This document shows, piece after piece, positions 5,229 through 64,000 of a DNA stretch of 64,000 bases. A program made the position numbers and the translations under genes. The notes under the pieces are model-generated. The model had not been told where the DNA came from. It ran no database searches and worked only from the letters and a program-made list of their open reading frames with translations. This DNA comes from Geosiphon pyriformis uo1 (Eukaryota > Fungi > Glomeromycota). Where the stretch lies: contig JAAOMT010000134.1 of NCBI GenBank assembly GCA_016748015.1, positions 1,370,757-1,434,756 of the forward strand. The letters run 5' to 3'. Position 1 is the first letter of the stretch; each line of letters begins with the position of its first letter.

Positions 5229-6716
5229 ACAATAAGAAACAGAGTGAATTTTGACAATCTTACAGAGAGCACCACTTTTATGTTATGGATTGGAGTAACA
5301 AGTTAATGGATAGCAAGGGAGAACAGGATTGTAGGGTGATGAAAATAATCAAAGGGAATTCAACTTCAAAGAGCAAATTAAATAAGTATGGATTCAATGT
5401 ACGAGATCAGTCTTATAAAATATCTCAGTCACTATTTTTTTTAAAAAGTAACTGGAGAATCTGAAGGTAGAGGAATAGTCCATACTGTTAACAAATGATT
5501 ATGCCTGGTATAATTCTATGCCTCATGTCAGCACTCTTAGAATTTAATATTAAGTATTAGATGTGCTCTTCAGTCATGTTTTATTCAATAATCTTTAAAT
5601 ACTACACTTATACATTTCAGAAAAAAAGTAAGAATTAACCAACAAGTAATCTTTTATTCCAAGATGTTCAGATACTTGAAGGTAGAGAAAGAGAAAATTA
5701 GTGATAAGAGAAGAATTAAGATGAAAGTTGTTATTTTATTTATTCTTAATTATTTTGAACATGCTTTTCTATAGCTAAGAAATTCATTGCATATATAGTT
5801 GTCAAAAGTGGTTAATGATCAGGTCAACAACTAAGTCAATGATCAGGTCAATGGTCAGGTCATTGATTAAGTCAATGATTGTTATCTAAAAATAGTGTGG
5901 TTAATACATGTGATAATTAATAAGAAGTATAAGTTTCAATCATAACAATAGTGTTATTGTTGAAACTTATACTTCTTATTAATTATCACATGTATTAACC
6001 ATTGATGTTATATAAATTAGCCACACTATTTTTAAAAAATGATTATTAATCTAATTATTGACCTGATCATTAACTTGATTATTGACCTTATTATTAATCT
6101 GATCATTGATCTAGTTATTGATCTAATCATTGACTACTTTTGATAGCTATATAAGTGATGAATTTTTTAACTGTAAAAAAGCATGTAGAAATTAAGGAAA
6201 TAAAAAAAATAAAATAACAACTTTATCTCAATTCTTCTCTTATCACTAATTTCTCTTTTCCTACCTTCAAGTATTTGAACATCTTAGAATAAAAAATTAT
6301 TTGTTGGTTATTTCTTACTCTTTTTTTGAAACATGTAATTACAGCATTTGAAGATTATTGAATAAAATGTAACTGAAGAGTACATCTGATACCTGATATT
6401 GAATTCTAAAAACACCAATGTGAAGCATAAAATTATACTAGTGTGTGATCATTTGTTGACAATACAGACTATCTCTCTACTTTTAGATTTCTGGTTATCC
6501 TTGAAAAGTATAGTGACTGAAATATTTTATGAGATTAATCTTGTACAATAAATTCATACTTATTCAATTCACTCTTTAAAGTTGAAATCTCTTTGATTCC
6601 TTTTATTACTCTACAATCCTGTTTATTCTTGCTATCCATTAGCTTGTTACTCCAACCTGTAACATAAAAGTAGTGCTTCTTGTGAAGTTGTCAAAATTCA
6701 TTTTGTTTCCTATTGT

Positions 6717-8521: not shown

Positions 8522-9309
8522 TGTTACAAGTAATTATTTCTGGTGTTGAATTAAATAACAAATCTGTAACTTGGTGCTAAAAGTTATTCGTGTTGATGTT
8601 ATTAATCTGAAGGTTTTGTATCTAAAGGTTTCAGTTTGAGTTTTTTGTATTGTTACGGGTTGGAGTAACAAGCTAACGAATAGCAAGGGAGAACAGTATT
8701 GTATGGTGATGGAAATAAACAAAGAAGGAATTACAATAAGGAAGCAAATTGAATAAGTAGGAATTCAATATGCATAATCAGTCTTATAAAAATCACAGTC
8801 GCTAATCTTTTCTTAAATTTGAAGGTAGAGGAATAGTCCGTGATTGTCAACAAGATAACACCACTGCTATTATTCTATGCCTCAACTTGGCGATTCTTAG
8901 AATCAATAACAGGTATCATTGTACTTTTCAATCGTTTTTTTATTCAATAAATTACAAGAGCAAGCCAATTGCTTCTCAGGCTAATTCTAACAAATACAAA
9001 TCAAAAAGAGAAAAAGATAAGGTATGTAAATGCCAACAAGTAGATACTTGAAGGTAAAAAAAGGGGAATAAGCAATTATGAGAGGAAGTAATTGATATTG
9101 TTTATTTCGTTACTTTGATCATGTTTTTTTACAGCTAAGGGAATTATTGCTTATATAGCTATCTAAAGTGGTCAATAACCAAATCAACGATCAGGTCAAT
9201 AATCAGGTCAACAATCAGGTCAATAATCAGGTCATTGATCAGATCAATGATCACTATCTAAAAATAGGGTGGCTAATTATATGACATCAGTGGCTAATAC
9301 ATGTGATAA

Positions 9310-9966
9310 TTAATAAAAACTATGTGTTTTAACCATAACATTATCCTTTCCAAAGAGATTGAGCTCTGGCAAAATCAAACTATTTATGGGATAGTCTATG
9401 TGAAAGGTTTTGTTTAACTCAAAACTAACTAGTTTGTTGAAGTCTTTTGTGGATAGAGTATATAGTACTTGAGACAAAATAAGCTTTGTATCCAAGAAAC
9501 CAAATCTTTGTATAAGAGTTCTGGCTCTTCTAGCAATGGTCAAAACTCTTGGGACATCCAATCGTATAATGCCCAAAATTTCCACTTGTATCTCTGAAGT
9601 TGTTTTCTTCATGAGCTTCATGTCTTTTATGATTTTACCAAGATGACCATAGAGTTCTAGTTGTCTTCCATATGACAAGTTTTTGTCTATGGGCAAGATT
9701 TCTTGTATTGTTTTTCCAATTGTGCTGGAAGGTGAAAGTATTGCTACTGTTATGCTTTCCAGCAGGTATTTATCCATTTTGCCACCAATTCTTTCTCTTC
9801 TGGTAGTTGTTTTCTTTGGTCTAATAACAGTGTGAGTTTTACTGTTGTCTGTTATAGTGGTTTGTTTTCTGATAGTCAGAGTAGCATTTGGATAGTTCTT
9901 GATCCAATACTCATGGAGAGTATAGAAAGTGTTTTGAATGTTTTAATCCAGGAAATAATTGTTCAT
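9310..9966 (-). pseudogene. A3 ORF3, ~218-aa protein of unknown function; runs through the PPT and ends 30 nt inside the 3' LTR
   Basis: ATG 9966 is in frame with ORF 9310-9777 (one CAA>TAA stop between); same ORF in A2, A4, A5. Confidence 0.8.
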
Positions 9967-10007
9967 GTCGATTGAAGATACCTCTGTTTTGGGAATGATG
10001 CATTTAT

Positions 10008-11321
10008 TTATATCTGATTTTTGCTGATTATTTGGGTTGGTATTACCACAACAGGTAACCAATCAGGTCGTTTGTGATATTTCTTGAGTCACATGCCATG
10101 AACAGGACGATTACTGAATATTGTTCCATATTGATCTTGTAAGATATAAGAACTATTGTTCAAAACTTTGTTGACTATAAAGAGTCTTTTCCATCGGCTA
10201 GAGAATTTATCACTATAGACATTGTTTCTGTCTGAACGGTATTCCAAAACTAAGTCATCAACACTTAAGAAAAGTGTTTTATAAGTCTTTTTCTTTTTGA
10301 GCTTCTCTTGGAATTGTTTTATCTTTTCAAAGGCAATTATTCGTGCTTCTACCAATGAGTCAAGAATAGTACCAAGTCTTCTTTGCAAAATGTCCTTGTA
10401 ATTTCCTATTGTTATTTCTTCAAAAGGTATTGTTTCTATATCCATTTTTATTGGTAAAGTTGCCATTTATCCATAGAGCAGATAAAAGGGTTCATAACTT
10501 GTTATGTCATGATTCACAGTTCTGTAAGCAAACAAAGCTGAAGGCAACATTTTGCCCCATAGGTTGGTTTCTTCACTGGTTTTGGCTAGGGTTTCACATA
10601 GTGTTCTATTAAAATGTTCCACTAGGCCATTTGTTTGGGGATGATAAGGAGAAGAGAGTTTATGACATATTCCCATTTTTCTGCAAAGTTCTTCAACCAG
10701 TGTACTGAGAAAAGCTCTTCCTCTATCAGATAAAAGTTCTTTGGGGCAGCTGTAGTGACAGATAATATCTTCATAAATGAAATTGGCAATTGAGACTGCT
10801 GTTTGATCTGGGGTGGCTCTTGTTTCTACCCACTTTGTAAGATAGTCGGTAGCTGTGATAATGTATCTGTTGCCATCAGGAGTTACTGTTAAAGGTCCAA
10901 CAACATATATACCAATTTTATTAAATGGTTAACCAACAAAAATTGGATGGATATCTTCCTTGCGATTGGGTTTTCCTCTTCTTTGGCAGGTATTACAGGT
11001 TTTAATGTATTCAGCAATGTCTTTTCCCAAGGTAGACCAATAATAGCAAGCTAAAGTTTTCTGAATTGTTTTTGTTTTTCCAAAGTGTCCAGCTAATGGA
11101 TCAGTGTGCATATTGTAGATCACAATTTCTCTTTCTTCAAATCTAATGACTTTCTGGGGGCGGTTAGGATCTTTTCTATTTCTTTTATATAACTGGTTCT
11201 GACAAATCAAATAGAAATTTCATTGTTTGTGCAAATGTTCTCTTTGCTGTCAAGTATAGTCCAGCAGGTATTGTCCTTTACCCAAAAATTTCATTAAAGC
11301 AGAGTAGTTGTTTAAGTTCAT
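10008..11321 (-). pseudogene. A3 integrase, stand-alone ORF (~437 aa)
   Basis: Own ATG at 11321; HHCC (HTDPLAGHFG..CNTC), LSDRG, QTNGLVEHFNRTL, decayed GPF/Y motif; ORFs 10929-11210, 10467-10676 and 10089-10466 share one frame. Confidence 0.92.
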
Positions 11322-11387
11322 TATCGTGTTTGTTTGTGGGGGAAGTTACAAATAATTAAGTTGGTTTGGTTTGAGAGGGTTTTACTA

Positions 11388-14081
11388 TCACTGGATGGTA
11401 AGTATGAAAAGAGCATCGGCATTTTGATGATTAGCTCCTTTACGGTGTTGAATGTCATAGTTGAATTCGTCCAAGTGGAGTATCCAGCAAGTTATCTGTT
11501 TATGTTCCAGGTTTCTTTTGTTGCATAGCCAAACTAAAGCTTGGTGATTTGTTACCACCAAAAATTTCACACCCTTAAGATATTTGTCCCAGTAGCTGGT
11601 AGCCCAAACTACTGCTAAGCATTCTTGTTCAGTGACTGAGTAGTTCTTTTCTGCTGGTGTGAGAGTTCTACTGGCATATGCTACAGCATGTTCTCTGTTA
11701 TTTTCATCTTTTTGGAAAAGAACAGCACCAAGTCCATAGCCAGATGTATCAGTGTAGAGGATAAAAGGTCGATCCAAATTAGATTGTATGAGAATGGGTT
11801 CTGTAACCAGTTTTTTCTTCAGAATTTCAAATGCTTTTTGTTGATGAGTGCCCCAGTGATAATTGATGTTTTTCCTAAGTAGCTGATTGAGAAGAGCAGT
11901 GATTTTAGAGAAATCCTTGACAAACTTGTGATAATAAGAGGCCAAACCAAGAAAAGAGCATAGTTCATGAACATTCATTGGTTGTCTAATGTTTTGAACT
12001 TTTTCAATTTTGGCTAGATCAGAGAAAATTCCATCTTTTGTAATAAGATGGCCAAGAAACTGGGTGGATTGACGTTCAAAAAATGATTTGATTGGATTGA
12101 TCTTGAGACCAGCATTTCTAAGGAGGTCAAAAATTTTTTGCAAATGTTCAAGGTGTTCATTCCAGGTTTTTAAGTATATCATTATGTCGTTCAAGTAGAC
12201 TAGAACAAAGTTTTCTTTTACTGATTCAAATACTTTGTCCATTAAGCATTGAAAGGTGGGAGGAGCATTTGTAAGACCAAAAGGCATGACTGTAAATTCA
12301 TAGGTATCATACTTGGTGATGAAGGCAGTTTTCTTTCTGCTTTCTGGATCCATCTCTACTTGCCAGAATTCAGCAGTTAAGTCAATAGTTGAGAAGAAAG
12401 CAGCACCATGGAATTGGTCTAGCATTGCATCAATCTTGGGAAGTGGGTACATGTCTCTTTCAGTAATAGCATTTAATTGGCGATAGTCAACACAAAAGTG
12501 TAGGGTTCCTCCTTTCTTGGATACCACTACAACTGGGAATGCCCATTCACTCTTGGTTTCCTGTATGAATCCAAGGGTTTTCATTCGGGTTATTTCTTTT
12601 TTGATAAACTCATCATTGTGCCAGTTGGATTGATAGGGCTTCAAATAGATGGGGCAAGTTTTTCTGGTGATGATGGTGTGTTGTATCACATGTGTACATC
12701 CAGGAGGTTCACCTTCTTTTGAGATAACTGGACTGTTTCTAGCCAGCAGGTTTTCAATGTCTACTTTTCTTTTTTCTGGAGAGGGTTCTCTTTGTTCTAC
12801 AACCAGTGATTGGATTTCAGGTGGTTCGTTTTCAAAGGACTTTTGGACTTCTTTTATTTCCTCTTGGGGTATCAAGCTGATTGGTTCCCAATCTTTGTAA
12901 TAGATCAGGCAGGACATGCATTCATTGCTAGGAGAATACAATGGTTTGTCACACCAGCACCGAGCACAAGAACCATGTCACCAATAATTGTATTTGGCTT
13001 TCTTGCCTGGCTTTCTGTCAAAGGTTCTTCTGAGCATGTCATAATAAGGCCAGCAGATCAGCTTGCCATTGACAATGATTCCTTCTTTATCTGCCTTGAC
13101 ATTATCCAGTGGTTTGCCATTGCTAGTGAAGATGATATAGATGAGTTCAGCAGTTTCTTCTTGTTCTTTTTGTTTTTCTTCTTTCTCACTTTTTTCATCA
13201 TCTGATTCATCTGATTCATTTTTTTCTGGGCTTTGCTTGGGTACTGGGGGAGTTGTCCAATGGCGACACTTAACCACAATGGGTTTCTTACCACATCTGA
13301 TAGTTAGTTTACAGAGTTCATAATCAAGCAAAGTCTTTGCTTTCTTGAGCCATTCATTGCCAACAATAATGGTGTATTCTTTTGCTTCAGACACTTCTAT
13401 ATCAGTTTCAATGCTGATGCCATTGATGCGGACAGGAATAGCTTTGGCTATGCCAAGCCCTTTTTTCTTATCACCATGCACATTGGTCATTGGTCATGTG
13501 GATGATTCATCAATTTTTCTGCCAATTGCTTTAAAAAAGTGTTTGGCAATAACACTAACAGATGATCTACTGTCTAGGATTAAATTGATGAAGTAGCCAG
13601 CCACTTGGGCTTTACAAATTAGAGGAGTAACATTGCTATTGTTAGCAAATTCAGCTTGGCGAGGGTGTTTGTTGGTTTTGGATGTCTTTTTCTTTGGAAT
13701 CAGGAATTTGTGAAGATCTTTTCTGAATTGTGGATGGGTTATCAATTGGCCAAAGGTTATATGTGCTGGGGTTTCCATAAGATCTTTGACAACAGAATAG
13801 GGACCGGATTTTTGTACTATTTCTGGGAGTTCTAACTTTGGAGAATTCTTGAAAACTTTGGCTTTTGAGAGCTCATTGTTGTCAGCAGTTGATGTAGAAG
13901 CTTTATTGGAGTCCAGAACGAAATCAACTTTGGCTTTTTTCTTCTTTCTTGTGGATTCAGAGAGGTTGATTGCTAATTCATCCATGTCATGGTCATCATC
14001 AGTTAAGTTAAAAGCATAAAAGAGGTTTTCTTCTGGTTGGCTTGCACTTTCACCCTTTGGAGGTGTGCCTACCAGTTTAAA
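11388..14081 (-). pseudogene. pol: A3 pol (protease, Cys motif, RT, RNase H) in the -1 frame relative to gag
   Basis: ORFs 13494-13985, 12978-13490 and 11388-12941 share one frame; ILDS, CVDYRQLN, MPFGLTNAP, YLND, YTDTS, NYSVTEQECLA, NADAL. Confidence 0.96.
14043..14081 (-). promoter_or_regulatory. Programmed -1 ribosomal frameshift signal (U UUA AAC plus downstream hairpin)
   Basis: Heptamer at 14075-14081 in X XXY YYZ phase with gag; -1 shift enters the pol frame; conserved at 3681-3687, 8037-8043 and 54194-54200. Confidence 0.85.
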
Positions 14082-15622
14082 GGCTGATAAACAGTGGCTT
14101 CAACTAGGGGATCCTCTCCAAAGAAATTGATGTTGGCATGATTGGATCTTTGGTTGGGCACATTGTTGTTGTTGATCTTGTTGTTTTGAGCATCATTGTT
14201 TTTGGGGACTGGTGGAGGCAGTAGAGGATTGTTGCAATCTCTTGAAAAGTGTCCAGTTAATCCACAGCGATAGCATACAGATGGGCCACAATTTTGTTGT
14301 CTTTGATAAGGTGGTTTCTGGGGCTGATTGAAGCGTGGTTCAAATCTGGGTCTTTGTGGTTGCTGATTTTCTCTGACTGCTTGAACTACGGGTTCTAATA
14401 ACCGAGCAAGATTTGCTGTAAGTCTGTCTATTAACTGTTTATTTGGATCTTGAGTGTGAGTGGCAAAAGAAGTAGCAGCCATTTAAGGGGCAGGAGCCAT
14501 GACAGAAACAGGAGCAAAAACTGATAGTGTGGATTCCAAGTGCATCCTTTGGTTATCTTCAATTCTTTGTGCTAATTCAATGGCCATATCCATGGTGAGA
14601 TTATCTTTTAGGGCCAGGAGGGGCCAAAGAGCATATGATAGATCAGTTCTCAATCCTTTTGTGAAGGAGTGAATTTTCTGCTCTTCTGTCCAATTTTTTC
14701 CAGTGTCTACTCATTTGATTAACTTTCTGATTGCTTTGGTGTATTCGGTTACAACTTCACCGGGATCTTGGGTTCTTCTTTCCAATTCTATACACTATTT
14801 TGATATTAATATTGGGGTTCTGAACTTGTTTTCAAACCAGGTAGTGAAAGAAGTGTTGATTTCTCCCACATTTGCTGGTGTCCATCTAATGATTCTTTGC
14901 TGAGCGTTGGCATCTGTTTCTTGTAAGAACCAGGTAGCAGAGGATCCTTGAAGGTAGCCACCAACAATTTGGAACTTGTACTTATCATCATATTGATTGG
15001 CTGTAACAGCTCTTTCAAAGTCATTCAACCATTCAATTGGATCTTGTGCATCACCTCTAAATAATGGTATTGGGGTGTTGTTTCTTCATCCTAGAGCAGT
15101 TTGTATACCTTGGAGGGCAGCCAGAATGTTTGCTTGCATGGGGTCATTAGCCATTGGTTCAGAGGTAACTGTTTGTGTAGACGAGTCTGATTTGCTTGAT
15201 AAAAGATCAAAAACAGGGGCAGTTTGGTAGCTTTCTTCTTCTGTTTCAAAGGGAGTTTCAGTTGCTTGATGGGCAGCAATCCAAATGTGGATTTGATGAT
15301 TCAGATATTCGAAATCAGGGGGCTGTTGTTCAAAGGTTGCAGAATATAAGAGCTGATTGATACTGTTGTTTCTTTCTTCAAAGTCATCTTCAAAATAAGC
15401 TTGGTCAAAGTAATAGGTTGTATAAGCTGTATAGGTTTTAGCTGAATGCTCGTTCAAGAACCAGTTCCAAAAGTCTTGGAATTGTCTACTGGATTGTTTT
15501 TCAAGAGAGAAGCAGATTAAGCAGGAGGGCAGAGGATTAAGTTTAATAAAACTTTGGTCATTTCTGTTGTGTGCTGCAAAGTGTTCTTCTGATTGCTGTG
15601 GCAGATATGAGTAATCACCCAT
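14069..15622 (-). pseudogene. gag: A3 gag (~517 aa: N-terminal domain, capsid, CCHC knuckle)
   Basis: ORFs 15086-15622, 14795-15028 and 14069-14482 share one frame; CYRCGLTGHFSRDC. Confidence 0.93.
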
Positions 15623-16193
15623 ACAATGAGGGAATAAGTGAATTTTGACAACCTCATAGGGAGCACCACTTTTATGTTACGGGTTGGAGTAACAAGCTAA
15701 CAGATAGCAAGAGAGAACAGTATTGTATGGTGATAGAAATAAACAAAGAAGGAATTACAATAAAGAAGCAAATTGAATAAGTAGGAATTCAATGTGTGTG
15801 ATCAGTCTCATAAAAATCACAGTCACTAATCTTTTCTTAAATCTAAAGGTAGAGGAATAGTCTGTAATTGTCAACAAGATAACACTACTGTTATTATTCT
15901 ATGCCTCAACTCAACAATTCTTAGAATCAATAACAGGTATCATTGTACTTTTCAATCATTTCTTTATTCAATGAATTACAAGAGCAAGCCAATTGCTTCT
16001 TAGGCTAATTCTAACAAATACAAATCAAAAAAGGGAAAAGATAAGGTATGTGAATGCTAACAAGTAGATACTTAAAGGTAAGGAAAGGGGAATAAGCAAT
16101 TATGAGAGGAAGTAATTGATATTGTTTATTTTGTTACTTTGATCATGTTTTTCTACAGCTAAAGGAATCATCACTTATATAGCTATCTAAAGT

Positions 16194-16289
16194 GGTCAAT
16201 GATCAGGTCAATGATCAGGTCAATGATCAAGTCAATGATCAGGTTAATAATCAGGTCAATGATCAGGTTATTGATCAGGTCAATGATCA
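16194..16289. repeat. 12-bp tandem repeat (GGTCAATGATCA) x8 in the A LTR, just upstream of the TATA box
   Basis: Directly visible; 4-11 units in all eight A LTRs. Confidence 0.95.
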
Positions 16290-16869
16290 CTATCTAAAAA
16301 TAGGGTGGCTAATTATATGACATCAGTGGCTAATACATGTAATAATTAATAAAAACTATGTGTTTCAATCATAACAGTATAATGGACAGAGATTCAATAG
16401 TTGTTTTATCCGTAGCTTCCAAGAATCGCAATTCTGTCAATTCTTCTCTTGGCATGATGGCCAGCAATCCTCTGGTAAGTATTCTATATCTTCTGTATGT
16501 GTCCTACCCTCTCGCAGGGGTCTTTTACCAGACAATTCTTGACATCAGTAATCTAGTGCTTTATTCAACCAATTAGTGCACAACAATAAAATCAAAATGA
16601 AATAAAAAAAAGAAATAAAAGAAAAATAAAGAAAGAAAAAAATAAGCCAAGGCAATTTGCAAGTTAGTATTCCATCAATAGCCATAATCAAGAGCTATTG
16701 TTTCAGTGTGGTTAAGTATCAATTACTATCAATATGAAGTGTTGATAGTAGCAGTGGGTTTGAGATAACAAACAGTTATTTATTTGTGGTTTGGAAAGTT
16801 GTCTAGATGAAATCTAAACTGAGAGGTCTGTCTTTTTAGCTTCTAATCCTACTGCTATATATACATAAT

Positions 16870-17035: not shown

Positions 17036-17120
17036 ATTTTACTACGTCTATTTCTGATTGGTTAATAACTATGCTAATATATATTCCCTATATTTCTATA
17101 AGTAACATTATTCCCTTCTT

Positions 17121-17780
17121 TTAATATTGAGCTCCATTGAAATCTAACTCTGTTAATTCCCCTTCTTGAAGTATTTCTTGAATTTCATTTTTAAGAATTA
17201 CTTGTGTTATTTGAGTCTGTAATTCTTCAAATTGAGCATTGGTAATCTTTCCTAATTGATTACTGGTAACCATATCCATTGCTTTGTTAAGTAAGATTTC
17301 TGGTCGATCTTGAAATGCTGTGTGTATTTGGTATATGGCTCAGACCTATGTAGATAAGTTGTTTTTTCTCACAAAATGTTTTAATTGTTGTAATATTCTT
17401 GTATCAAATAATTGCTTTGTTTTATCCGTATATAGATTCTGAATATTCACGTGTTGTCCTAAGTAAAAATAACAATAGTTTCTTGGAAAATGTTGTATCC
17501 ACCAATTCCAAGTTTCTTTAGTCAACTCTTGGTATAGTGATTCTTTTGTCAACTCTTTTATTGCTAATTTTACTTTCGTAATGATTTTGTCAATGGTATT
17601 TTCTGTTTTTTTCTGTGTTCTATGTGGCAATGTCTTTCTAGTGTCTTGATATCAGATGGTTTGTTGATTAATTGTAATTTCCATCTCTTGGTGTTGAATC
17701 AATTAAAAGAGTTGTTGTGTTAGTGAATGGATATTGTCTATAATTTTCATTTTTCTGATATTTCTTGTCACATTTATCAT
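17121..17780 (-). pseudogene. B2 ORF3, ~219-aa protein of unknown function between integrase and PPT
   Basis: ATG 17780 lies 24 nt after the integrase stop, in frame with ORF 17346-17630; frame continues to TAA at 17121; internal stops are compatible with C>T or G>A changes. Confidence 0.68.
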
Positions 17781-17804
17781 GTCTTTATATATTCTTTTGA
17801 TGAA

Positions 17805-19187
17805 TTAATTTAACGTGTTGTTGTCAATGATAATGATTGGTTCCAGATTTTGTAAAATCTCCTCTGGTTGGACTAGTATCTTCTGTACTCTTAATTGTGG
17901 AATATTACTGGTGGATGATAGTGTAATGTTGTGGTATGATTTCAGTTGATCTCCATGTGCTGCTTTGGTTAAGATTTTGTTATCCAGTCTTAATTTGTAA
18001 GCTCCATTCCCTAGAATTTCTTCTATGTGAAATGGTCCATCCCATTTGGGGTTGAATTTTTTATTCCATTGTTTTTTTGCTTTGGTACAATGTAAGAGTA
18101 CTTTGTCTTCAATCTTGAATTCAACTGGTTTGTCTAGTAGTTGATTATCATGTCTTTTTTTCTGTTTCTCTTGTGACTTTTGTATATTATCAGCTGCTTT
18201 TTTTTGTTTGTTTTCTAATGTTTCCATTAAGTCATATGTTCTTCTTAACAATGTTTTTTGGAAATTTTTTTCTGTTATTGGTTCAGTTGGATATGTGTTA
18301 ACCTTTATCTCAACTGGTAATGTTGCTGTTCTACCGTATATCAATTCAAATGGTGTTGTTTGTGTGGTGTCTTACTTCATTGTCCAATAAGCAAATAATA
18401 CTGATGGTATAAACAAATCCCATTCATTCTGGTTTTTTTGGCTGAGTTTTGCTATTGCTTCACACAATGTTCTATTAAATCTTTCAACTAATCCATTGGT
18501 TTGTGAATAATATAATAATGATAATGGTCTCTTAATTCCGAATCTTTGGCTTAATTCTGCTAATGTTCTATTCACAAAATGGGTTCCTTGGTCTGATAAT
18601 AATTCTTTTGGACATTCATGTCGACAAATCAGATATTGATAGACGAATTCGGCAACAGATTCTGCATTCACTCTTTGAATTGCTTTGGCTTCTGGCCATT
18701 TAGTAAGATAGTCCATGGCTACTGCAATATATCTGTTGTCTCTGCTGGTAATTATTAATGGTCTGACTAAATCAATTCCAATATGGTCAAATGGTTGTTC
18801 CACTTTAATTGGTCTCAATAGTTTGCTGGGTCTTGTTTCTTCTCTTCTTTGACAAGCATCACAATTTTGCACATATTGGATGATGTTTGGATACATTGAT
18901 GGCCAATAGTATTTCTTTTTGGTTCTTTCTATGGTTGCTTCTTTATGAAAATGTCCTGCCATTAGATCTGAGTGTATGTTGAACAGTATTGTCTCCTTTT
19001 CTGGTTCTGTAATTATTCTGGTTGGTTAATCTGAATCTTTTCTATTTTTCTGATAAAGTATATTTTGGTGAATGATAAAATATTTGGATTGTTGTTTGAT
19101 CCTCTTTTGTTCTGGTTGAGATAATTTCTTCTTAAACTGTTGAGTATTTATATAATATTGAAGTTGTTAATATTTTTGTGTGTTTAT
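17805..19187 (-). pseudogene. B2 integrase, separate ORF in a different frame from RT
   Basis: HSDLMAGHF..CDAC, IGIDLV, LSDQG, NGLVERFNRTL, WDGPF; presumed start is ATA at 19187 (inferred ATG>ATA). Confidence 0.9.
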
Positions 19188-21074
19188 TTTTTGTTATATT
19201 TTCGTGAGTATTGTTTGGGTTTTGTTATATTTTTGGGTTGAAATGTTCTTAGATTTGTCTCATTTGTGACAAACTGTTGGCATTTCTATTGTCTTTTCCC
19301 TTTTTATAATGTATGGTATAAGTATATAGTACAAGTGCCATTTTCTATCTTGATTGTCTACCATTTCCAAATTCTTGTTTTTGGAGTGATGTTAGTCCTT
19401 TGTGATCTGTATACACTTTAAACTTCTGGCTCAAGTATTCTTTCCATTTCATGACTGCTCAGTATATTGCTAAGTATTCTTGTTCCAGTGTTCTATAGTT
19501 CTTTTCGGCTGGTGTTAAGTCTCAGCTGGCAAATACTACTGAATGTTCTCTTCCATCCAGTTTTTTCTGAGATAGTACTGCTTCCAATGCTTGACCTGAT
19601 ACATTAGTAGTAATGATGAATGGTTTGTTGTGATCTGAATAGATCAATACTGGCACTTAAATGAGCTTTCCTCTTAAAATGTCAAAAGCTTTTTGTTGCA
19701 TTTCCATCCATTCATATTTCACATTCTTGGTTTGTAGATGGTTGAGTGGCTGAGCTATTTTAGAAAAGTTTTTGATGAAGCAACGATAATAGCTTGTAAA
19801 TCCCAAGAATGATTTTAGTTTGGTCACATTGGTTGGTACTAGAAAGTTCTTTACTATTTCTATCTTGTCTGGGTCTGTCTTGATACTGTCTTTGCTGACT
19901 ATATGTCCCAGAAACTTCAGTTCTGTTTTGCCAAAGAAGCACTTGGTAGCATTTAGCTTTAACTCTGCTTGTCACAGTCTTTCGAATACTTGTTGAAGAT
20001 GATGGAGATGATCATCAAATGTTCTTGAGAATATATTGGTGTTGTCTAAGTACACAACTACTGATTTTCACAATAAGCCAGTATACACAATTTTTATTAG
20101 CTGTTGGAAGGTTGCTGGGACATTGGTTAAGCCAAATGGTATTACTTCAAATTCAAAATTTTTTTTTCTTGTGATGAATGTCGTTTTCTTTTTGTCGGCT
20201 GGATCCATGGCTACTTGCCAGTAACCACTATCCAAGTCCAATGTTGTAAACCATTTGTTTCCTCCAAAAGCATCAAATAGTTCTTGTATCTGTGGAGTTA
20301 GATAGCTGTCTCCACAAGTTACACCATTGAGTTTCCTGTAGTCTACACAAAATTGGATTTTTCTATTCTTCTTACAAACAAGTACTACTGGTGACAACCA
20401 TGGGCTCATTGATGACTGAATTAACCTATTGTCAAACATTCAGTTGATCTTTTGATGGATGATTTCATGGCTGGCTAGTGGTACCCTATATGCTCACTGT
20501 TTGATTGGTATTGCATTCTCAATCTTGATTTGATGCTGGATAATATCAGTTCTGCCAAATTTGTTTTTACTAGTGAAGATGTCATTGAAATTATTAAGTA
20601 ACATTTTTAGTTGTATCTGTTGAAGTGGGTCTAGATTTCCCATATTTATCTGTTCCAATTGTTCTGACTGTAACAGATAACATTTATTTCATCTGTAGAT
20701 GGTTTGTGATGTAATGTTCACATATTCACAAAGCTATGGAAAATCTGAAATGCTGCTTGGTGTTTGATCTTCAATTTCCATGGTTAAATATCTAAGAGTG
20801 GTTCCTTTTGGTATTTTTACAACATTTCTGGTGTTGTTGTAGATGGGAATTTTGATATGGTTATGGCTTTTGGCTGGTATGTGTAGATTGATAAGTCCAA
20901 TTTCTCCTAATTCACAAAGGATTGCTTCTGCTTCAAAAATCTGTTTGTGTTCCTTCTCTTTTCTTTCTATTGCTAATATGTATTGGCTATATGATGAAAT
21001 GAAAATTGTTTGACCAGTTGAGATAACTTTTCCTTAGCCAATAATTTTTTTCTCTACCATATTGACTGGTATAT

Positions 21075-21480
21075 TTATTCTACCTGTGGATCCAAATTTC
21101 TGTATTCCTCTTGCTGTTATCTCTAGTTCTTTTCTGTTTCCTACTGATATTAATTGAGCTATTTTAACCAGAGGCAAGAAGATTGCTTGTACTATCTTTT
21201 TGTTTGGCTTTATAATATAGGTCTTTTCTGAGTCATTTTGTAGCATGGCGATAATATTTCCTATATATCCTGTGTTAATTATTCCTCTTCTGATATTTAT
21301 CTCTCTTTTCACTAGACTACTCTTAGATGCTAATTAAACTATTGTTGTTGCCAGAATTTCCAGTGCTATTTTTAAATCAATGCAGATGCGTGAATGTGGT
21401 TCCAATTGAATGGCATCTTTTCCTAAATACCTCAGATTAAACCTGGCATCAGTATCATGTGTGCATTCTGGCATAATACC
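21075..21480 (-). pseudogene. dut: Trimeric dUTPase domain of B2
   Basis: Five motifs in order: HDTDARFNLRY, ASKSSLVKR, GIINTGYIG, KIVQAIF, RGIQKFGSTG. Confidence 0.9.
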
Positions 21481-21701
21481 TTCATTATTATCGCTGAACC
21501 ATTTAAGTTCTTGTTCCTTGGCAAGGTCAAGGAGTGCAATATATTGTTCAAAGTCTGAATCAGAGTTTAAATCTGAGTTGGAATTGTTGTCATTGTTATC
21601 GCCATATTGGACAGAGCTGGAACCAGTGTTTTTGTCATCATTATTGTCAGAGTTTGAATCGGGATTAAAAATCGATTCCGATTCTAATGCACAGCTGCTA
21701 A

Positions 21702-21889
21702 TTGGTTCCTCTTCCTCTGGGATTGTGTATATCATGTGTAGTGGTGGATTGTAAATGAGGTCACACTCATTACAATATTGAAAGTCACATGGAATTTGGT
21801 TTCTCTTCTTCTGGGATTGTGTAGATCATATGTGATGGTGGATTGTAAATAAGATCACACTTATTACAATATTGAAAGTCACATGGAAT
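21702..21889. repeat. 94-bp tandem duplication in B2 pol
   Basis: Units start at 21702 and 21796; single copy in B3 and B5. Confidence 0.92.
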
Positions 21890-24800
21890 CAAACAGTGGT
21901 TACATAGTCAAATATTTATTTCTTCCAACTATTGCTCTTGTTCTTTTCAAGTAGGTGTCAACTGTTGATAGTACTCGTGGAATTCTTCTGGATTGTTCTC
22001 AATGTTACTAAATATGTCAAACATTAGGACATATTCAGGTTCAGGCAAAAATAGGGGGTTGTTTTTGATTTCTAGTAGTTTATTGATTGTCACACCTTTT
22101 GCCTTCGCACTTGTTATTCTCCAGAGTTCATGTTCATTGTATGGATATCCTTCCAATTGTTATAATGCTTGTTTTTAGGCATTGTCAATTGGTGTTCTCT
22201 TGTGTACCCAATCATTGATTAGTATTGTATACTGACAGATTTCATCACATGTTCTTTTTCTCCCAGGAATGTTGTTCCACATTCCTTCATCAAGGAGAGT
22301 TTCCTCACAAGCTAAACATAGTGTATTATCCCATTTTCCCATTTGTTTTGGTCTTCCAAAGCATTCAATGAGACATGTGTGGCAATAAAACTTAGTTGCT
22401 GTCTGGTATTCCTCATCATCATTACAGCATGTGCCCATTGACGACAATTTCTTGTCACAATCAATGCATATGAGCTTTGGTCGGTAATAGCTTGATAATT
22501 GTGATAGTATATATGTATAAGAGGTGTAACTGGCAGTTGGTAGTGGGTCTTTTTCTTTCACTTTTTCTTTTCCTTTTTCTCTCTTATCCTATTCCCAAAT
22601 TGGTGGTTCTTCTAAGTCGTGATCGGTGTTCCAGGCTTGGTTTGCATTCCAAGTAGGTTCTGTTCTCTTCTGTTTTCCTTTGCCGTTGTCATCCCATGAG
22701 AGTATTGGCAGCAGCTCGTTGTGTTTTTTGTCAGTCCACAAGATTTGATATGCTTCTCAAGTAGGTTTTGGTTTTTTTTTTTCGAGATCAATTAAAGATG
22801 CTGTGGTGTTGGTAGCTTTGAAGTGACCACACATTGCTGGTACTTGTGTGTGTCAACCATTCTGGCTGAGTACTAGTTTTTAAGTCATCTAATCAAGCAC
22901 AGCATTGGTTTTGAATAGCTAGTCATTACTAACTAAAACTTGGTATTGGGTGGCTTTTATCACCAGAACTTTAATGAGTACTACAATGCTATTGACTTCA
23001 ATTGGGAAGTTATCGATTTCACCAATTGGGGTTTTGGTGGCTCCATCTGTGGTGATAATCCTGGCACTGGCAGCACAATCAACTTGGTGACCTAATTGAT
23101 CTATGAGTTGTTGTATGATGATATTGTCTGCTAAACTACTGTTAAGGATTAATTTGATGGAATGGCTATCGATCTTGGTGTCAGTGTACATGGCCATAAT
23201 CAGTTTCTCTTCAAGTGCTGCTCTACTGAATAATGGCATATCTAATGGTTTCTCGAGTTTGAATAGAAAAATGGCATCCAAAGATTCATTTTCGGTAATT
23301 GTAGCAGGTGGGATATTATTGGTAGGTGGTTGTTGTTGTTTGATTCTCTGATTGCTAGATGTGGCATCTTCTGGAGTTATCAGAAGGCTTAAATAGTATT
23401 GAGAATTCGGGTTTTGGGTGGGACCAGTGCCCGGATTCCACTGACAAGATCCTGATTGTTAATAGGAAGAGCTGGGGATTGGTTAATATACAACCATCGC
23501 CGATCTCCAGTTTTGGGTAATCCTCGATCTTGGGTTCTTTGATGTCATTTGAGCTGGGTTTGCTGGTAGTGTTTGAATGATGGGTGTTTGATAGATTGCT
23601 GGTGGCTGTGGTTGATATATTACTTGTGGCTGCACTTGATAAATTGCTTGTAGTAGCGGTTGATAAACTGGTGGTTGATAAATTGGTTGGTGTGTCATAG
23701 ACAGATAAGTGGGTTGGTATTGGTCTTAATTTGGGTGATGGTTCGGAGTCTGGAACTGGTAATTGGGGTTTCTATATTGATTTCCCAATCATAGATTGCT
23801 ATAAGTATGGCAGTTGGCTCTGATGTGCTCTTGTTTATCACAGTTGTGGCAGATGCATGTCTCTGGCTGCCACGACTGATTGAATGACGATGATAGACAT
23901 GACTAATTTTGGAAATGATTCGCATTTCCCTAATTGTTATGCCATTGAAGAGGTTGATAAATTATGTGATTGTCAGTTAAGTATCTCTCTAATTTCTGAT
24001 TAATTGAATTACTGAATTGCTTCAATTTGGAATCCAATTCAGATGATTTATTCATTGTTAGATTCACAGCTTAGGTGTGATTAGCTTCTAGTTCAGCTGT
24101 TTTAAAATCTCTGGCATAGATGACTGTGATTGGAAGATCTACTGGGTGCATTGGACGTATTTTTTGTAGGATGCCACTGTGTAATCTTCTAATAAATTGA
24201 TTTAAAATCTGTGGCACTGTGAAATAGTCAGCTTGGATGGCTTGTATTTGGCATAGATTTCTATGGAAGTGTTCTAAGTAGGTAATGACTGCTTTAGTGT
24301 CCCTTTGTTTAATGGTGGTAAATGTGTTGGTCAAGTGATTGATATTATTGTTATTACTAAAGTATCTCAAGAATTCTGTTTTGAACTCATTGAAGATTTG
24401 TGGTTTGGTGGCTAGGCTTTGATACCATGAGTCGGCAGTATCTTTGAGAAAATAGGGGATCACTTGAAGGGCTTTACCATCATTCTATCTATTGGTCATT
24501 ATGGCTTTTTTAACATTGTTGAGCCATATTTGGGCATCATTCTCTTCACCAGTAAAATTGTCAAGTTTTGCGATTGGTGCATAGGCCATTGGATCTAAGT
24601 TGGGTTGTTGTGGTGGTAGTTGAAGTGGTTGTTGTTGTACAGGTTGTTGGGGTGGTAGTTAAAGTTGTAGTTGTAGGGATTTGGCTACTGGATTAATTGG
24701 TGGTTGATCGATGACAATTACTGAAGGTAAGTTTTGTTGATTTATTAAATCAGAGTTTCAATTATCTTGAGTTGACAGTGTCTAAATATTCGGAGTTTCA

Positions 24801-26481
24801 ATTTCTGGATTTTCTGGGTTTAGATTTTGCTGGGTTTGAAGATTTAGGGTTTCAAATTCCAGGTTTTCAGTGATCAGGTTCTGGTAAGTGAATTCTTGAT
24901 CTTCAGCTTCTTCTTCTTCCTCTTCTTCTAATTCTGTTACTTTCCATGGATCAGAAATTCCGAAATTTGGGGGAGGTGGTGGTGATCAAAGTCCTGATGG
25001 CATTGATGATTACAAGTTAAATCCTTCAAAATACACGCCATATGGTCCTAATAACTCTGCTTTCTTTTGTTTACTTTGGAATGAGAATTGTCCAAATGCT
25101 GATGTCATGTTTGATGTGGCCACACTGGTAGATGTAATATTAATGGCACTTCCAGGTGTATAGTAGTATAATGGATTAGTTGGAGACTCAGCTTTTGTTT
25201 TCTTCCAAATAGGTGGTTGTATTCTTTTGGGTGTTACTGCTGGTGTTTGCAGTTTTTCTTTGCCTTTGTTCACATAAGTAATAGAGTATCTTTGCTGTGT
25301 GTGGTGTTCAATTTCTTTGTTGATTTCTGTGATGATAGAGGTGAAATTGTGATTTATTAGCAGGTTGGTATTTTGAATTAATTCACTGTAAAAGGCTTCT
25401 CTTGCTGATTTAATATTTACTGGTGTTCCTAACAGATAGGCAATTCTTTCATTGATGTAGAAATTGAAAGCTGATTCCACTAATATGTGGTTGTGATTTA
25501 ATCCCAAATGTTGACAGTAGTGTTAAAATAAGAATTTTGCAAATCCTAAATGGTTTGCTTCTATGTTTTCTGATTCTGCCACTTTTAAATTTGTGTTGGT
25601 GCTGGTTTTCTGTAGGATTATACCTTATAGGGAGCACCAAATGTTACAGGTGATTATTTCTAGTGTTAAATTAAATAACAAATCTGTAACTTGGTGCTAA
25701 AAGTTATTTGCATTAATGTTATTAATCTGAAGATTTTGTATCTAAAGGTTTTGGTTTGAGTTCTTTGTATAATGGACAAAGATTCAATAGTTGTTTTATC
25801 TGTAGCTTCCCAGAATTGCAATTCTGTTAATTCTTCTCTCAGCGTAATGGCTGGCAATTTTCTGGTAAGTATTCTGTATCTTCTGTATATGTCCTACCCT
25901 CTCGCAAGGGTCTTTTACCAGGCAATTCTTGACATCAGTAATCTAGTGCTTTATTCAACCAATTAGTGCACAACAATAAAATCAAAATAAAATAAAATAA
26001 AAAAATAAAAAAAAAATAAAAAAAGAAAAGAAATAAGCCAAGGTGATTTACAAGTTAGTATTCTGTCAATAGCCGTGATCAAAAGCTATTGTTCTAGTAT
26101 GGTTAAGTATCAATTACTATCAATATAAAGTTTTGATAGTGGCAGTGGATTTGAGATAACAAACAGTTATTTATTTGTGGTTTGGAAAGTTGTCTAAATA
26201 AAATCTAAACTAAGAGGTCTGTCTTTTTAGCTTCTAATCCTACTGTTATATATACATAATTGAAATTCCTCAATTCCTCAATTCTTTACAACAGAAATCC
26301 TGGAATTTCTGGAATTCTGCAATTCTTTTGAGAGGAATTCTGGAATTCTAGAATCCTGCGATTTCTTGTGAGAATCCTGTAATTTCTGGAATCCTAGAAT
26401 TCCACATTTTACTATGTCTACTTCTAATTGGTTAATAACTATGCTAATATATATTCTTTATATTTCTATGAGTAATACTGG

Positions 26482-30108: not shown

Positions 30109-30765
30109 ATAAACAATTATTTTTTGGATCAAAACATTTAAAATGCCTTTTATACTCTCCATGAATATTGGATCAAAAACTATTCAAATATTATTCTGAC
30201 CATTGGAAAACAAATCACTATAACTAATAACAATAAAACACATACTGTTATTAGACCAAAGAAAACTAATACTTGAAGAGAAAAAATTGATAGCAAAATA
30301 GATAAATATCTATTGGAAAGTATAACAGCAGCTATACTCCCACCTTTTAACACAATTGGAAAAACACTTCAAGAAATCTTATCCATAGACAAAAACTTGT
30401 CATATGGAAGGCAATTAAAACTTTATGGTTGCATTAGTGAAATTATAGAGGATATAAAACTTATAAAGAAAACAACTTTAGAGATACAGGCAGAAATTTT
30501 GGGCATTATATAATTAGATATCCCAAAAGTTTTAACTATTGCTAAAAGAGCCAAAACTTTAATACAAAGATTTGGTCTCTTGGATACAAAACTTATTTTG
30601 ATTCAAGTATTATATACCTTATCCACAAAAGACTTCAACAAACTATTTAGCTTTGAGTTAGATAAAACCCTTCAAATAGATTACACTATAAATAGCTTGA
30701 TTTCACCAGAGCTCAATCTCTTTGGAGAGAATGATATTATAATTAAAACTTATACTTTTTATTAA
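30109..30765 (+). pseudogene. A2 ORF3
   Basis: ORFs 30313-30513 and 30580-30765 match A3 ORF3. Confidence 0.78.
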
Positions 30766-31463
30766 TTATCACATGTATTAGTGACTGATGTTATATAAAT
30801 TAGCCACTCTATTTTTAGAAAGTAATTATTGATTTGATCAATAACCTGACCATTGACTTGATTATTGACTTAATCATTGATCTGATCATTGATCTGATCA
30901 TTAACCTAGTCATTGACCTAATTATTGACCACTTTTGATAGCTATATAAGCAATGAATTTCTTAGCTATAGAAAAGCATATAGAAATCAAGGAAATAAAA
31001 AAAATAAAATAACAACTTCATCTCAATCTTTTTCTTATTGCAAATTTCTCTTTTCCTATTTTTAAGTATCCAAACATTTTGGGATAAAAGATTACTTGTT
31101 GTTTATTCTTTATTCTTTTTCTGAAATGTGTAATCACAGCATTTGAAGATTATTAAATAAAATGTGACTGAAAAATACATCTGATACCTGATATTGAATT
31201 TTAAGAGCATCGACATGAAGCATAGAATTATACTAGTGTGTGATCATTTGTTGACAGTACGGATTATCCCTCTACCTTTAAATTTCTGGTTATCCTTGAA
31301 AAATATAGCAACTGAGATATTTTATAAGACTAATCTCGCACATTGAATTCATACTTATTCAATTCACTCTTTGAAGTTGAAATCCCTTTGATTCCTTTCA
31401 TCACTCTACAATTCTGTTCTTCTTTGCTATCTATTAGCTTGTTACTCTAACTCATAACAGTAG

Positions 31464-58301: not shown

Positions 58302-58958
58302 ATGAACAATTATTTTCTGGATCAAAACATTCAAAATGCTTTCTATACTCTCCATGAGTATTGAATCAAAAACTATCTACATGCTACTTTGACTATTGGA
58401 AAACAAACCACCATAATTGATAACAGTGGAACACATACTGTTATTAGATCAAAGAAAACTACTACCAGAAGAAAAAAAATTGGTAGCAAAATGAATAAAT
58501 ATCTGTTAGAAAGTATAATAGCAGTTATACTTCTACTTTCCAGCACAATTGGAAAAACACTCCAAGAAATCTTACTCATAGACAAAAACTTGTTATATAG
58601 AAGGCAATTAGAACTCTATGGTTACCTTAGTAAAATCATAGAGGATATAAAACTCATAAAAAAAACAACTTCAAAGATACAGGCAGAAATTTTGGGCATT
58701 ATATGGTTAGATGTTCCAAGAGTTTTAACTATTGCTAAAAGAGCCAAAACTCTAATACAAAGATTTGGTTTCTTGGATACAAAACTTATTTCACCTTAAG
58801 TATTATATACCTTATCCACAAAAAACTTCAACAAACTAGTTAGCTTTGAGTTAGATAAAACTCTTCAAATAAATTACACCATAAATAGCTTGATTTCACT
58901 GAAGCTTAATCTCTTTGAAAAAGATGATGTTATGATTAAAACTTATACTTCTTATTAA
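58302..58958 (+). pseudogene. A4 ORF3 (218 codons)
   Basis: ATG 58302 in frame with ORF 58389-58799; stop lies inside the 3' LTR. Confidence 0.8.
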
Positions 58959-60790: not shown

Positions 60791-62605
60791 TAGATATATC
60801 AGTTAATATAGCAAAGAAAGAAATTATTGACAAAAAAGAAATTATCTTTACCTGTTAATCAATTTCTATCCTGTCATATAACTAGCACATATTAGCCATA
60901 AAAAGAAAAGTAAAAGATCAAGCTCAAATTTTTGAAGTAAAAACAACAATTTGTGAATTAGGAAAGATTGGACTTACTAATTTTACATACCAGCCAAAAG
61001 CTTGAAACACATAAAAATTCTCATCTACAATACAACTGGAGACATCATTAAAATACCAAAAAAAACCACTATCAGATATTTAAGCACTAAAGTTAAAGAC
61101 CAACCAAATACCATTCCAGATTTTCCACAACTGTGTAGATATGTAGATATTATATCATAAACAATATATGGATAAAAAGAATGCTATTTGCTCTAACCAA
61201 AACAATTAGAACAAATAAACTTGGAAAACTTAGATCTATTCCAACAAATGCAACTCAAAATATTACTTAACAATTTCACTGATATCTTTGTTAATGAAAA
61301 CAAATTTGGCCAAACTGATATTATCCAGCATTAGATCAAAACTGGAGATGCAATGCCAATCAAACAAAAACATACAGAGTATTACCAATTAGCTATAAGA
61401 TCATCTAACAGAAAATTAATCAGATATTAGACAACAGGTTAATTCAATCATCAATGAGTTTATGGTTGTCACCAGTAGTACTAGTCTGTAAGAAAAATAG
61501 AAAAATTTACTTTTGTGTAGATTACAGAAAACTCAACAGTATTACTTATGGAGATAGCTATCCAATTCCACAAATTCAGAAATTATTTGATGCTTTCAAA
61601 AAAAAGAAATGGTTCTCCATATTAAATTTGAATAGTGATTACTAACAAGTAGTCATAAATCCAGCCAATAAGAAAAAAACTGTATTCACAATTAAAGAAA
61701 GAAATTTTAAATTTGAAGTAATGCTATTTGATTTAACCAATGCACTGACAACTTTCCAATGGCTAATAGAATTGTCTATACTAAACTGCTATAGAAATCA
61801 GTAGTTGTGTATTTAGATAACACTAATGTGTTCTTAAAAACTTTTAATAATTATCTTTATTATCTACAACAAATGTTTGAAAGACTAAGAAGAGCAGAGC
61901 TAAAGTTAAATGCCACTAAATACTTCTTTGGCAAAACAGAATTGAAATTTTTGGAACATATCATAAGCAAAGGCAGCATTAAAACAGATTCAGATAAAAT
62001 TGAGATAGTCAAAAACTTTTCGGTACCAACAAACTTGACAGAACTACAGGCATTTTTGGAATTTGCTAAATACTATTGCTGCTTTATACAAAACTTCTCA
62101 AAAATAGCTCAATCATTCTATCAGCTTTAAGCCAAGAATGTGAAATATAAATGGACTGAAAAGCAACAAGAAGCTTTCAACATTTTAAGAAAAAAGCTCA
62201 TTTAAGCACCAGTATTGATCTATTCAGACCACAACAAACCATTCATCATTACCACCAATGTATCAGATCAAGTATTGAGAGCAGTATTATTGCAGAGAAG
62301 ACCAGATAAAAGAGAATACCCAGTAGCATATGTTAGCTAAAGTTTAAGTCCAGCTAAAAAGAACTATGAAACACCAGCACTAGAACACTTAGCTATTTAT
62401 TGGGATAGAAGAAATACTTAAGCCAGAAATTTGATATTTACACTAATCACAAAGGGTTGACATCAATTCAGAAGCAAGAATTTAGAGACAACTTTCATGC
62501 TAAATAGAAAAAAAAAATGAAAATACTGATAGTTTGTTGCAAATAAAACAAATCTAAGAACATTTCAACCCAAAAATATAACAAAAGATAAATATACAAA
62601 AATAT

Positions 62606-64000
62606 TGTTACAGATTAGAGTAATAAGCTAACAGATAGCAAAAAAAAACAGAATTGTAGGATGATAAAAGAAATCAAAGAGAGTTCAACTTCAAAGAGTG
62701 AATTGAATAAGTATGGATTTAATGTGCAAGATTAGTTTTATAAAATATCTCAGTTGCTGTACTTTTCAAAAGATAACCAGGAATCTGAAGGTAGAAAGAT
62801 AGTCTGTACTGTCAACAAATGATCATGTCTGATATAATTCTATGCCTCACATCAGCACTCTTAGAATTCAATATCAGATATCAGATGTACTCTTCAGTTA
62901 CATTTTATTCAATAATTTTCAAATACTGCAATTACACATTTCAGGAAAAGAGTAAAGAATAACTGACAAGTAATCCTTTATTCCAAGATGTTCAGATACT
63001 TGAAGGTAAGGAAAGAGAAATTAGCAATAAGAAAATGATTGAGATGAAAGTTGTTATTTTATTTATTTGATTCTTGATTTTTACATACATTTCTACAGCT
63101 AAGAAATTCATTACTTATATAGTTATCAAAAGTGGTTAATAATTAGGTTAACAACTAGGTCAATGATTAAGTTAATAATCAGGTTAACAGTCAGGTTATT
63201 GATCAGATCAATGATTAAGTCAATGATCAGGTCAATGGTTAAGTCATTGATTAGATTAATAATCACTTTCTAAAAATAGAATGGCTAATTTATATAACAT
63301 CAATGGCTAATACATGTGATAATTAATAAAAAGTATAAGTTTCAACCATAATATTATCCTCTCCAAAGAGATTGAGCTCTGGCAAAATTAAGTTATTCAT
63401 GATGTAATCTATTTGAAGAGTTTTATCTAACTCAAAGCTAACTAGTTTGTTGAAGTTTTTTGTGGATAGAATATATAATACTTGAGATAAAATGAGTTTT
63501 GTATTCAAGAGACAAAATCTTTGTATTAAAGTTTTGGTTCTTCTAGCATAATTAAAACTCTTGGAACATCTAATCATATAATGCCCAAAATTTCTGCCTG
63601 TATCTCTGAAGTTGTTTTCTTTATGAGTTTCATATTTTCTATGATTTTTCTGAAACAACCATAGAGTTTTAATTGTCTTTTATATGACAAGTTTTTGTCT
63701 ATGGATAAGATTTCTTGGAGTGTTTTTTCAATTGTGCTGAAAGATGGGAGTATAGCTGCTGTTATACTTTCCAACAGATATTTATCTATTTTGCTACCAA
63801 TTTTTTCTTTTTTGGTAGTAGTTTTCTTTGGTCTGATAATGGTATGTGTTCCACTGTTATCAGTTATGGTGATTTGTTTTCCAATAATCAGAGTAGCATT
63901 TGAATAGTTTTTGATCCAATACTCATGGAGAGTATAGAAGACATTTTGAATGTTTTGATCCAGAAAATAATTGTTTATGTTAATTGAAGATATCTCTGTT
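62606..64000 (-). mobile_element. Gypsy family A copy A5 (3' LTR 62606-63353, PPT, ORF3 63323-63978; continues right of the window)
   Basis: LTR and ORF3 match the other A copies; flank ATAT at 62602-62605. Confidence 0.92.

Follow-up and report, generated by a model that had tools for sequence, protein, structure and literature searches.

A separately started accessory gene under purifying selection downstream of integrase in a Ty3/Gypsy retrotransposon family of Geosiphon pyriformis

The open reading frame downstream of integrase in a Ty3/Gypsy retrotransposon family of Geosiphon pyriformis, here called ORF3 of family A, is a real and separately started accessory gene. It was under purifying selection between subfamilies, at a strength like that of reverse transcriptase (RT), while the family spread. 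ORF3 stands above chance because of a selection test and because distant homologues exist. The window analyzed here is a 64-kb stretch of one Geosiphon contig and is a nest of decayed LTR retrotransposons. A preliminary description of the same DNA had suggested that ORF3 could be a transactivator, an RNA-binding factor, or a silencing suppressor in a polycistronic element, and this interpretation is partly supported: the layout holds, but the arguments given do not support these functions, which stay candidate roles. The ORF3 described there belongs to copy A2, whose parts are as follows.

8651..16376, minus strand: copy A2 of the family A Ty3/Gypsy element with both its LTRs, flanked by the 4-bp target duplication ATAC; it lies within the family B 3' LTR
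15675..16376, minus strand: 5' LTR of A2 (TG...CA), 92.3% identical to the 3' LTR
14069..15622, minus strand: gag of A2, interrupted by stops, with a CCHC zinc knuckle (PF00098, E 4.7e-06)
11388..14099, minus strand: pol of A2, coding for protease, RT, and RNase H in the frame -1 to gag
10008..11321, minus strand: integrase of A2, a separate ORF that starts 66 nt past the RNase H stop and is interrupted by stops
9967..10007, minus strand: spacer of 41 nt from integrase stop to ORF3 start, with an out-of-frame ATG at 10003
9310..9966, minus strand: ORF3 of A2, 218 codons, with the ATG at 9966, the stop TAA at 9312-9310, and the last 31 nt within the 3' LTR
9341..9351, minus strand: polypurine tract of A2, where the ORF3 codons read G-K/E-D-N/D
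8651..9340, minus strand: 3' LTR of A2, whose first LTR base is 9340
9170..9253, minus strand: seven 12-bp tandem repeats in U3 of the A2 3' LTR, 57 nt past the ORF3 stop

Family A carries the hallmarks of Ty3/Gypsy elements, including TG...CA LTRs, a primer site, a purine tract, and 4-bp target duplications (ATAC in A2, CTAC in A4, and ATAG/GTAG in A3). Pfam domains in A2 follow the Ty3/Gypsy order of gag, protease, RT, RNase H, and integrase, the protease match falling just short of the cut-off (E 0.0014). The solved RTs closest to that of A2 include Ty3-G Gag-Pol (E 4.5e-73). The A2 integrase has the zinc-binding and core domains; a chromodomain was absent in Pfam scans, and the ORF closes soon after the C-terminal module. 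Integrase is usually fused to pol in Ty3/Gypsy elements, whereas in family A it is a separate ORF. The position of the pol end is identical across A1-A4, and stops close RNase H there in all four copies. The gag/pol/integrase/ORF3 layout of the preliminary description is thus real, with integrase as an ORF apart and ORF3 having its own ATG. The primer binding site of A2 lies at 15651-15674 on the minus strand (TGGTGCTC...), six bases away from the 5' LTR. The overlap of gag and pol, in the -1 frame, lies at 14085-14150 on the minus strand and by eye holds no obvious canonical slippery heptamer.

Relative to integrase, ORF3 is read in the -1 frame. It runs across the purine tract at 9351-9341 and places 31 nt, stop included, in the 3' LTR, close to the 30 nt described before. 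The crossing into U3 is most simply a run-on tail, because the primer tract and the LTR end fix the codons F-G/E-G/E-D-D-V and a stop follows a few codons later. Ahead of ORF3, a TAA closes integrase 41 nt before the ORF3 ATG in A2 and A4 (two of three copies), while A3 is without that stop. The next stop in the integrase frame overlaps the ORF3 start as ATGA, and this arrangement of bases may permit stop-start coupling at the integrase-ORF3 junction. No stop-start overlap is present at the pol-integrase junction of family A. Some longer annotated proteins join integrase and ORF3 with a frame change at the join, and such annotations look like predicted splices. The other copies of ORF3 in the window are listed here.

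30109..30765, plus strand: ORF3 of A3, without ATG, 3 stops
58302..58958, plus strand: ORF3 of A4, 2 stops
63323..63978, minus strand: ORF3 of A5, without ATG, 1 stop and a 1-nt deletion; the element is cut by the window end

ORF3 was found in all four window copies that retain the 3' end, and the A3, A4, and A5 frames share 65-77% amino-acid identity with A2. The position, frame, and 218-codon length claimed for A2-A5 at the place of env all hold, but the frame is open in none of the four copies. In A2 a single codon, the eighth (9945-9943), is an internal stop. The stretch is covered along its full length by contigs from a single DNA run. Open proteins of 218 residues that start at M make up 20 of the 120 matches listed (the best 120 of 131), and all 120 listed relatives are from Geosiphon pyriformis, one of them apparently being the annotated product of A2 itself. 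A further homologue search was dominated by Geosiphon copies (best 120 of 141 matches listed).

The selection test was carried out on window copies A2-A5 and covers one branch and 39 sites. Pairwise counts divide the copies into A2 on one side and A3, A4, and A5 on the other. The test used sites at which the A2 base differs from the base common to A3, A4, and A5, and the changes at these sites were split into those that C>T/G>A decay of A2 can explain and those that it cannot. ORF3 transitions with G or C in A2 number 21 synonymous and 8 non-synonymous (omega 0.20, p 2.9e-05), and transversions number 6 and 4 (omega 0.12, p 1.6e-03). The non-decay classes therefore sum to 27 synonymous and 12 non-synonymous changes, with omega 0.12-0.20, whereas the changes that decay can explain comprise 4 synonymous and 9 non-synonymous changes with omega 1.13. 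Shifted-frame controls gave 10/19 and 3/25 synonymous/non-synonymous. The RT-RNase H region gave 42/18 and 13/16 in the same two classes, with an RT omega of 0.18-0.20, and no difference was found between ORF3 and RT (Fisher p 0.55). Among A3, A4, and A5 themselves the changes look neutral (transition pN/pS 0.74-1.32), as expected after insertion. The purifying selection between subfamilies on which the preliminary description had staked its reading is therefore present (omega 0.12-0.20). The changes private to single copies of ORF3 are mostly C>T/G>A (77 of 134). As a separate observation, CpG observed/expected in the window is 0.11 and private C>T changes have similar rates in the contexts CA, CT, and CC, and they do not show the preference for CpA that marks classical RIP.

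Divergent relatives exist as well. Searching 1.84 billion representatives with a profile yielded 27 matches, comprising 23 Geosiphon proteins and four environmental proteins. The four environmental relatives (E 7e-20 to 2e-06) are 28-35% identical to ORF3 and align from residue 1. Two of them are full-length and close with EGDDV followed by two or three residues. This EGDDV stands at the place of the Geosiphon G/E-E-D-D-V, which in A2 is encoded by the purine tract together with the opening bases of the LTR. From this EGDDV ending, the environmental relatives probably sit in retrotransposons and share the overlap of ORF3 with the purine tract and LTR. A metagenome scan with ORF3 and two viral-contig scans found no DNA context for ORF3 relatives. 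A metagenome scan with integrase gave three loci, and the two examined are unrelated elements. One of these (L001:3196-7296) is an unrelated Gypsy element in which, by eye, a dUTPase lies between RNase H and integrase and a chromodomain lies at the C-terminus.

The first 40 residues of ORF3 are conserved (about 45% identity). Two helices are conserved as well, near 91-113 (LP...GRQ-E) and near 144-151 (IA-RA--L), as is the stretch P--L--L---DF--L near 165-179. Basic residues at 56, 95, 101, 140, 147, and 161 are kept in every distant relative that covers them. The basic patch RPKKTTTRRER, to which the preliminary description had drawn attention, was read correctly in A2, but it fails as a functional clue. 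Among window copies it is exact in A2 only, at residues 49-59, and it is an insertion peculiar to Geosiphon: the four distant proteins have other residues or gaps there and keep a single basic residue. Both full-length distant relatives have a slightly acidic pI (5.7-6.0).

The predicted protein is not an envelope protein by the features that could be read from it. No transmembrane stretch was found in four Geosiphon proteins, the best 19-residue hydropathy being 1.28-1.37; across seven family A-type proteins the best value is 0.81-1.37, as measured by a hydropathy scan and not by a trained predictor. The same scan found no hydrophobic N-terminus or signal peptide, which agrees with what had been described, and the proteins have 0-1 Cys. 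The signal peptide and transmembrane anchor by which env and env-like proteins are recognized are thus lacking in ORF3. It is very improbable that ORF3 is a functionless passenger or an env-like membrane protein. Such a reading would draw on the broken state of all four window copies and on the position of env, but it is already largely refuted by the purifying selection, by open homologues at 28-35% identity, and by the missing hydrophobic stretch.

Searches for a known family or fold gave nothing firm, so the expectation that no characterized accessory protein would match was borne out across the family, PDB-sequence, and AlphaFold/Foldseek searches. ORF3 had nothing at the cut-off in Pfam, PHROGs, or NCBIfam, and an Atlas family search assigned it no family. 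The Atlas leads, scored 0.91 on just 131-134 features in common, were a coat family of closteroviruses and a phage repressor of translation, and neither recurred with the distant homologue as query. Sequence matches in PDB to DAP kinase (E 0.53), TAF6 (E 0.5), and TM1506 (E 0.52), each from a different query, were treated as chance. The TAF6 histone-fold match came from a mixed profile and was not recovered with a distant-only profile; the model breaks its central helix at a conserved turn, whereas a histone fold has a long continuous central helix. A first fold built on 22 close copies (pLDDT 39) was discarded. A second AlphaFold model, made from 27 rows for the relative P0246, has a mean pLDDT of 49.9 and a pTM of 0.39. 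Its best-predicted part is formed by helices 96-113, 119-130, and 134-150 of P0246 (pLDDT 55-71), and in this low-confidence model the conserved R140 and R147 fall within the predicted three-helix region. Foldseek with the second model found nothing at E 0.001 in viral and PDB libraries. Full structural alignment against 48,161 chains reached a best Z of 4.6, with none at 5, the level that the alignment tool itself calls a common arrangement. The weak structural neighbors include several DNA-binding helical domains, among them the CHD1 C-terminal domain (Z 4.0, rmsd 3.1, 74 aligned) and DnaA domain IV (Z 3.5, rmsd 3.1, 69 aligned). Neighbors of this kind at Z 3-4 lean toward nucleic-acid binding by the predicted model and do not constitute a match.

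One role that these results bear on is help to the particle or its RNA. ORF3 would then bind the genomic RNA or Gag and act in packaging, in reverse transcription, or in the movement of particles between the nuclei of the coenocytic hypha. It is a soluble protein selected as strongly as RT, and the closterovirus coat and phage repressor hits are at most a lead in this direction. However, no capsid or nucleocapsid protein matched by fold or family, a zinc knuckle is already supplied by gag, and the Atlas leads are absent with the distant homologue. We consider such a role unlikely.

A second element in the window repeats the arrangement of family A.

17110-26479, minus strand: family B element, with a separate integrase ORF and its own ORF3
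17121..17780, minus strand: family B ORF3, 219 codons, 4 stops, ending just ahead of the purine tract

Family B has the same four-ORF layout as family A, and its ORF3 gave 116 matches, all in Geosiphon. The ORF3s of the two families are alike in length, position, and helix order. No homology between them was detected, with an hhalign probability under 1% on three occasions, a best cross-HMM E of 0.13, one of 16 pairs above shuffles, and none of 10 above shuffled HMM scores. Both ORF3 starts (9960-9970 and 17775-17785) lie in the same context, GACATGA. Between protease and RT of family B, at about 21250-21480, there is a dUTPase-like stretch (PF00692, E 0.057, under the cut-off).

A separate integrase ORF 66 nt past the RNase H stop needs some mechanism for translating downstream ORFs, and split integrase and ORF3 are paired in families A and B. 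ORF3 could in principle be a translational transactivator like the caulimovirus TAV, serving reinitiation at the integrase ORF and at ORF3 itself, and spacers of tens of bases fit reinitiation of the CaMV type (excerpt of PMC5902531). Pfam, however, gave no caulimovirus family even with E limits of 1-5, and splicing, internal promoters, or a cis-acting stop-restart would do equally well. According to the same excerpt, TAV is made from its own 19S message and no TAV-like activator was known outside Caulimoviridae (PMC5902531). Two families in one genome are moreover not independent proof of co-occurrence, and we judge a TAV-like activity of ORF3 improbable. It would be a long shot to go further and take family A as a fungal "complex" Gypsy lineage of four separately started genes (gag, pol, integrase, and ORF3) in which ORF3, a protein of undescribed fold, is a trans-acting TAV-like translation switch outside the plant pararetroviruses.

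The nesting of the elements bears on another role. ORF3 could be a split-off targeting subunit that attaches to integrase or the pre-integration complex and directs new insertions to heterochromatin or to other elements. Its position is that at which chromoviruses have a chromodomain or a CR motif, and the family A integrase is without a chromodomain and short after its C-terminal module. The window copies lie inside or beside other elements, and A1 and A3 lie head to head on either side of one 4-bp site. This shared site is a single case, however, and nesting is expected without targeting in a genome that is 41% LTR sequence (excerpt of PMC11952901). ORF3 is also not fused to integrase, having another frame, its own ATG, and an integrase stop that precedes this ATG by 41 nt in A2 and A4, and no continuous read-through from integrase to ORF3 was found among the annotated proteins checked. 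Targeting by ORF3 seems unlikely to us.

The nest itself has three levels between 5952 and 31459, with A2 in the family B 3' LTR and family B in the gag of A3. The 5' LTRs of A1 (minus strand) and A3 (plus strand) stand head to head with four bases between them (ATAG, 5948-5951), which match the right-hand duplication of A3 (GTAG, 31460-31463). A1 and A3 thus apparently inserted at a single target site. In family A, each of the four target sites seen is centered on TA (ATAC at 8647-8650, GTAG at 31460-31463, CTAC at 51921-51924, and ATAT at 62602-62605), and this shared center suggests that the family A integrase may have a target sequence preference.

The reading to which we give most weight, tentatively, is that ORF3 is a soluble, mostly helical accessory protein that binds DNA or chromatin at its own LTR and sustains transcription despite host silencing. 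This weight comes from the conserved basic helices, the U3 repeat array, and the heavy loss of cytosines taken together. Translation of the protein would depend on reinitiation on the element RNA or on a shorter message. The predicted three-helix core, which spans roughly residues 99-155 in Geosiphon, holds conserved basic residues and would contact nucleic acid. The target would be the LTR, perhaps the 12-bp array in U3, where ORF3 would work as an activator or a counter-silencing factor. The array has eight units in the 5' LTR of A2 (16194-16289) and is possibly an enhancer array. Tandem arrays in U3 are also frequent in LTRs without such a gene. In Rhizophagus, a relative of Geosiphon, methylation and small RNAs target Gypsy elements (excerpt of 10.1101/2021.03.30.436303). 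What probability remains belongs to roles for ORF3 that we have not thought of.

Extra ORFs of LTR retrotransposons are known and are almost never given a function, and none is described for Glomeromycota in the literature found. No description of this ORF3 was found there either; Repbase, the Geosiphon genome paper, and the supplements of PMC11952901 may hold the family. Excerpts of a survey of fungal LTR elements (PMC3248453), a paper on transposable elements of AM fungi (PMC11952901), the Troyka paper (PMC12440569), and an envelope paper (PMC13524379) do not mention such an ORF. If ORF3 is a counter-silencing or a targeting protein, it would help to explain the LTR expansion to 41% of the Geosiphon genome (excerpt of PMC11952901). 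Well over 200 "hypothetical proteins" in the Geosiphon annotation are retrotransposon ORF3 copies. The many open copies, the measured purifying selection, and the divergent homologues make direct expression and assay of the protein feasible, and the separate integrase gene raises the question of how a third and a fourth ORF are translated in a eukaryote.

Among known systems, lentiviral nef and foamy virus bel/tas are accessory genes at the 3' end that overlap U3. ORF3 differs from them in that its overlap with U3 is only 31 nt, it has no N-terminal glycine for myristoylation, and its element is without env. It has no sequence match to nef or bel in Pfam or PDB, and fold searches with its low-confidence model produced no hit at E 0.001 or Z 5. 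The caulimovirus P6/TAV protein is much larger than ORF3. Like ORF3, it is encoded by the last ORF of a retroelement in which several ORFs have starts of their own, but it has its own promoter and message and no sequence match to ORF3, whose host is a fungus (excerpt of PMC5902531). The parallel with TAV, nef, and bel that had been drawn is not backed by any sequence match to those families. Nor does the overlap with U3 carry a functional argument, since it spans only 31 nt and has a Gypsy precedent in plant CRM group A chromoviruses (excerpt of PMC3059260). The coding region of these elements also crosses the purine tract into the 3' LTR and occupies the place of the chromodomain, as ORF3 does; the CR motif of CRM group A, however, is joined to the integrase C-terminus and sits within the LTR, whereas ORF3 is separate, has 218 residues, and has only its last 10 codons in the LTR (excerpt of PMC3059260). 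By this measure ORF3, which is not a domain fused to the integrase C-terminus, differs from CRM group A; Pfam scans gave no chromodomain family.

ORF3 sits more comfortably with the sense additional ORFs (aORF-3S) of LTR retrotransposons, which are extra sense ORFs after integrase conserved like core proteins (excerpt of PMC7264820). It lies in sense between pol and the 3' LTR, is present in all four window copies that have the 3' end, and is conserved like the core proteins. Diverse non-env ORF3s occur in rotifer elements, and the ORF3 of rotifer Vesta6c (210-230 residues) is about the size of the Geosiphon protein (excerpt of PMC5408684); non-env ORF3s are also noted in a review (excerpt of PMC6431247). 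In contrast to the aORF-3S and bdelloid types, no transmembrane or enzyme domain was found in ORF3, its host is a fungus, its integrase is a separate ORF, and its frame enters U3. VANC of the VANDAL elements is, like ORF3, a lineage-specific accessory protein of transposons in a methylating host, and it is an anti-silencing factor, the action tentatively proposed above for ORF3 (excerpt of PMC13547354). VANC is a product of plant DNA transposons and has its origin in MAIN-like proteins (excerpt of PMC13547354). No similarity to it was detected in ORF3, and the likeness would be one of function. Transposon accessory proteins that modulate integration or silencing are nonetheless a recognized class, as the same excerpt sets out (PMC13547354).
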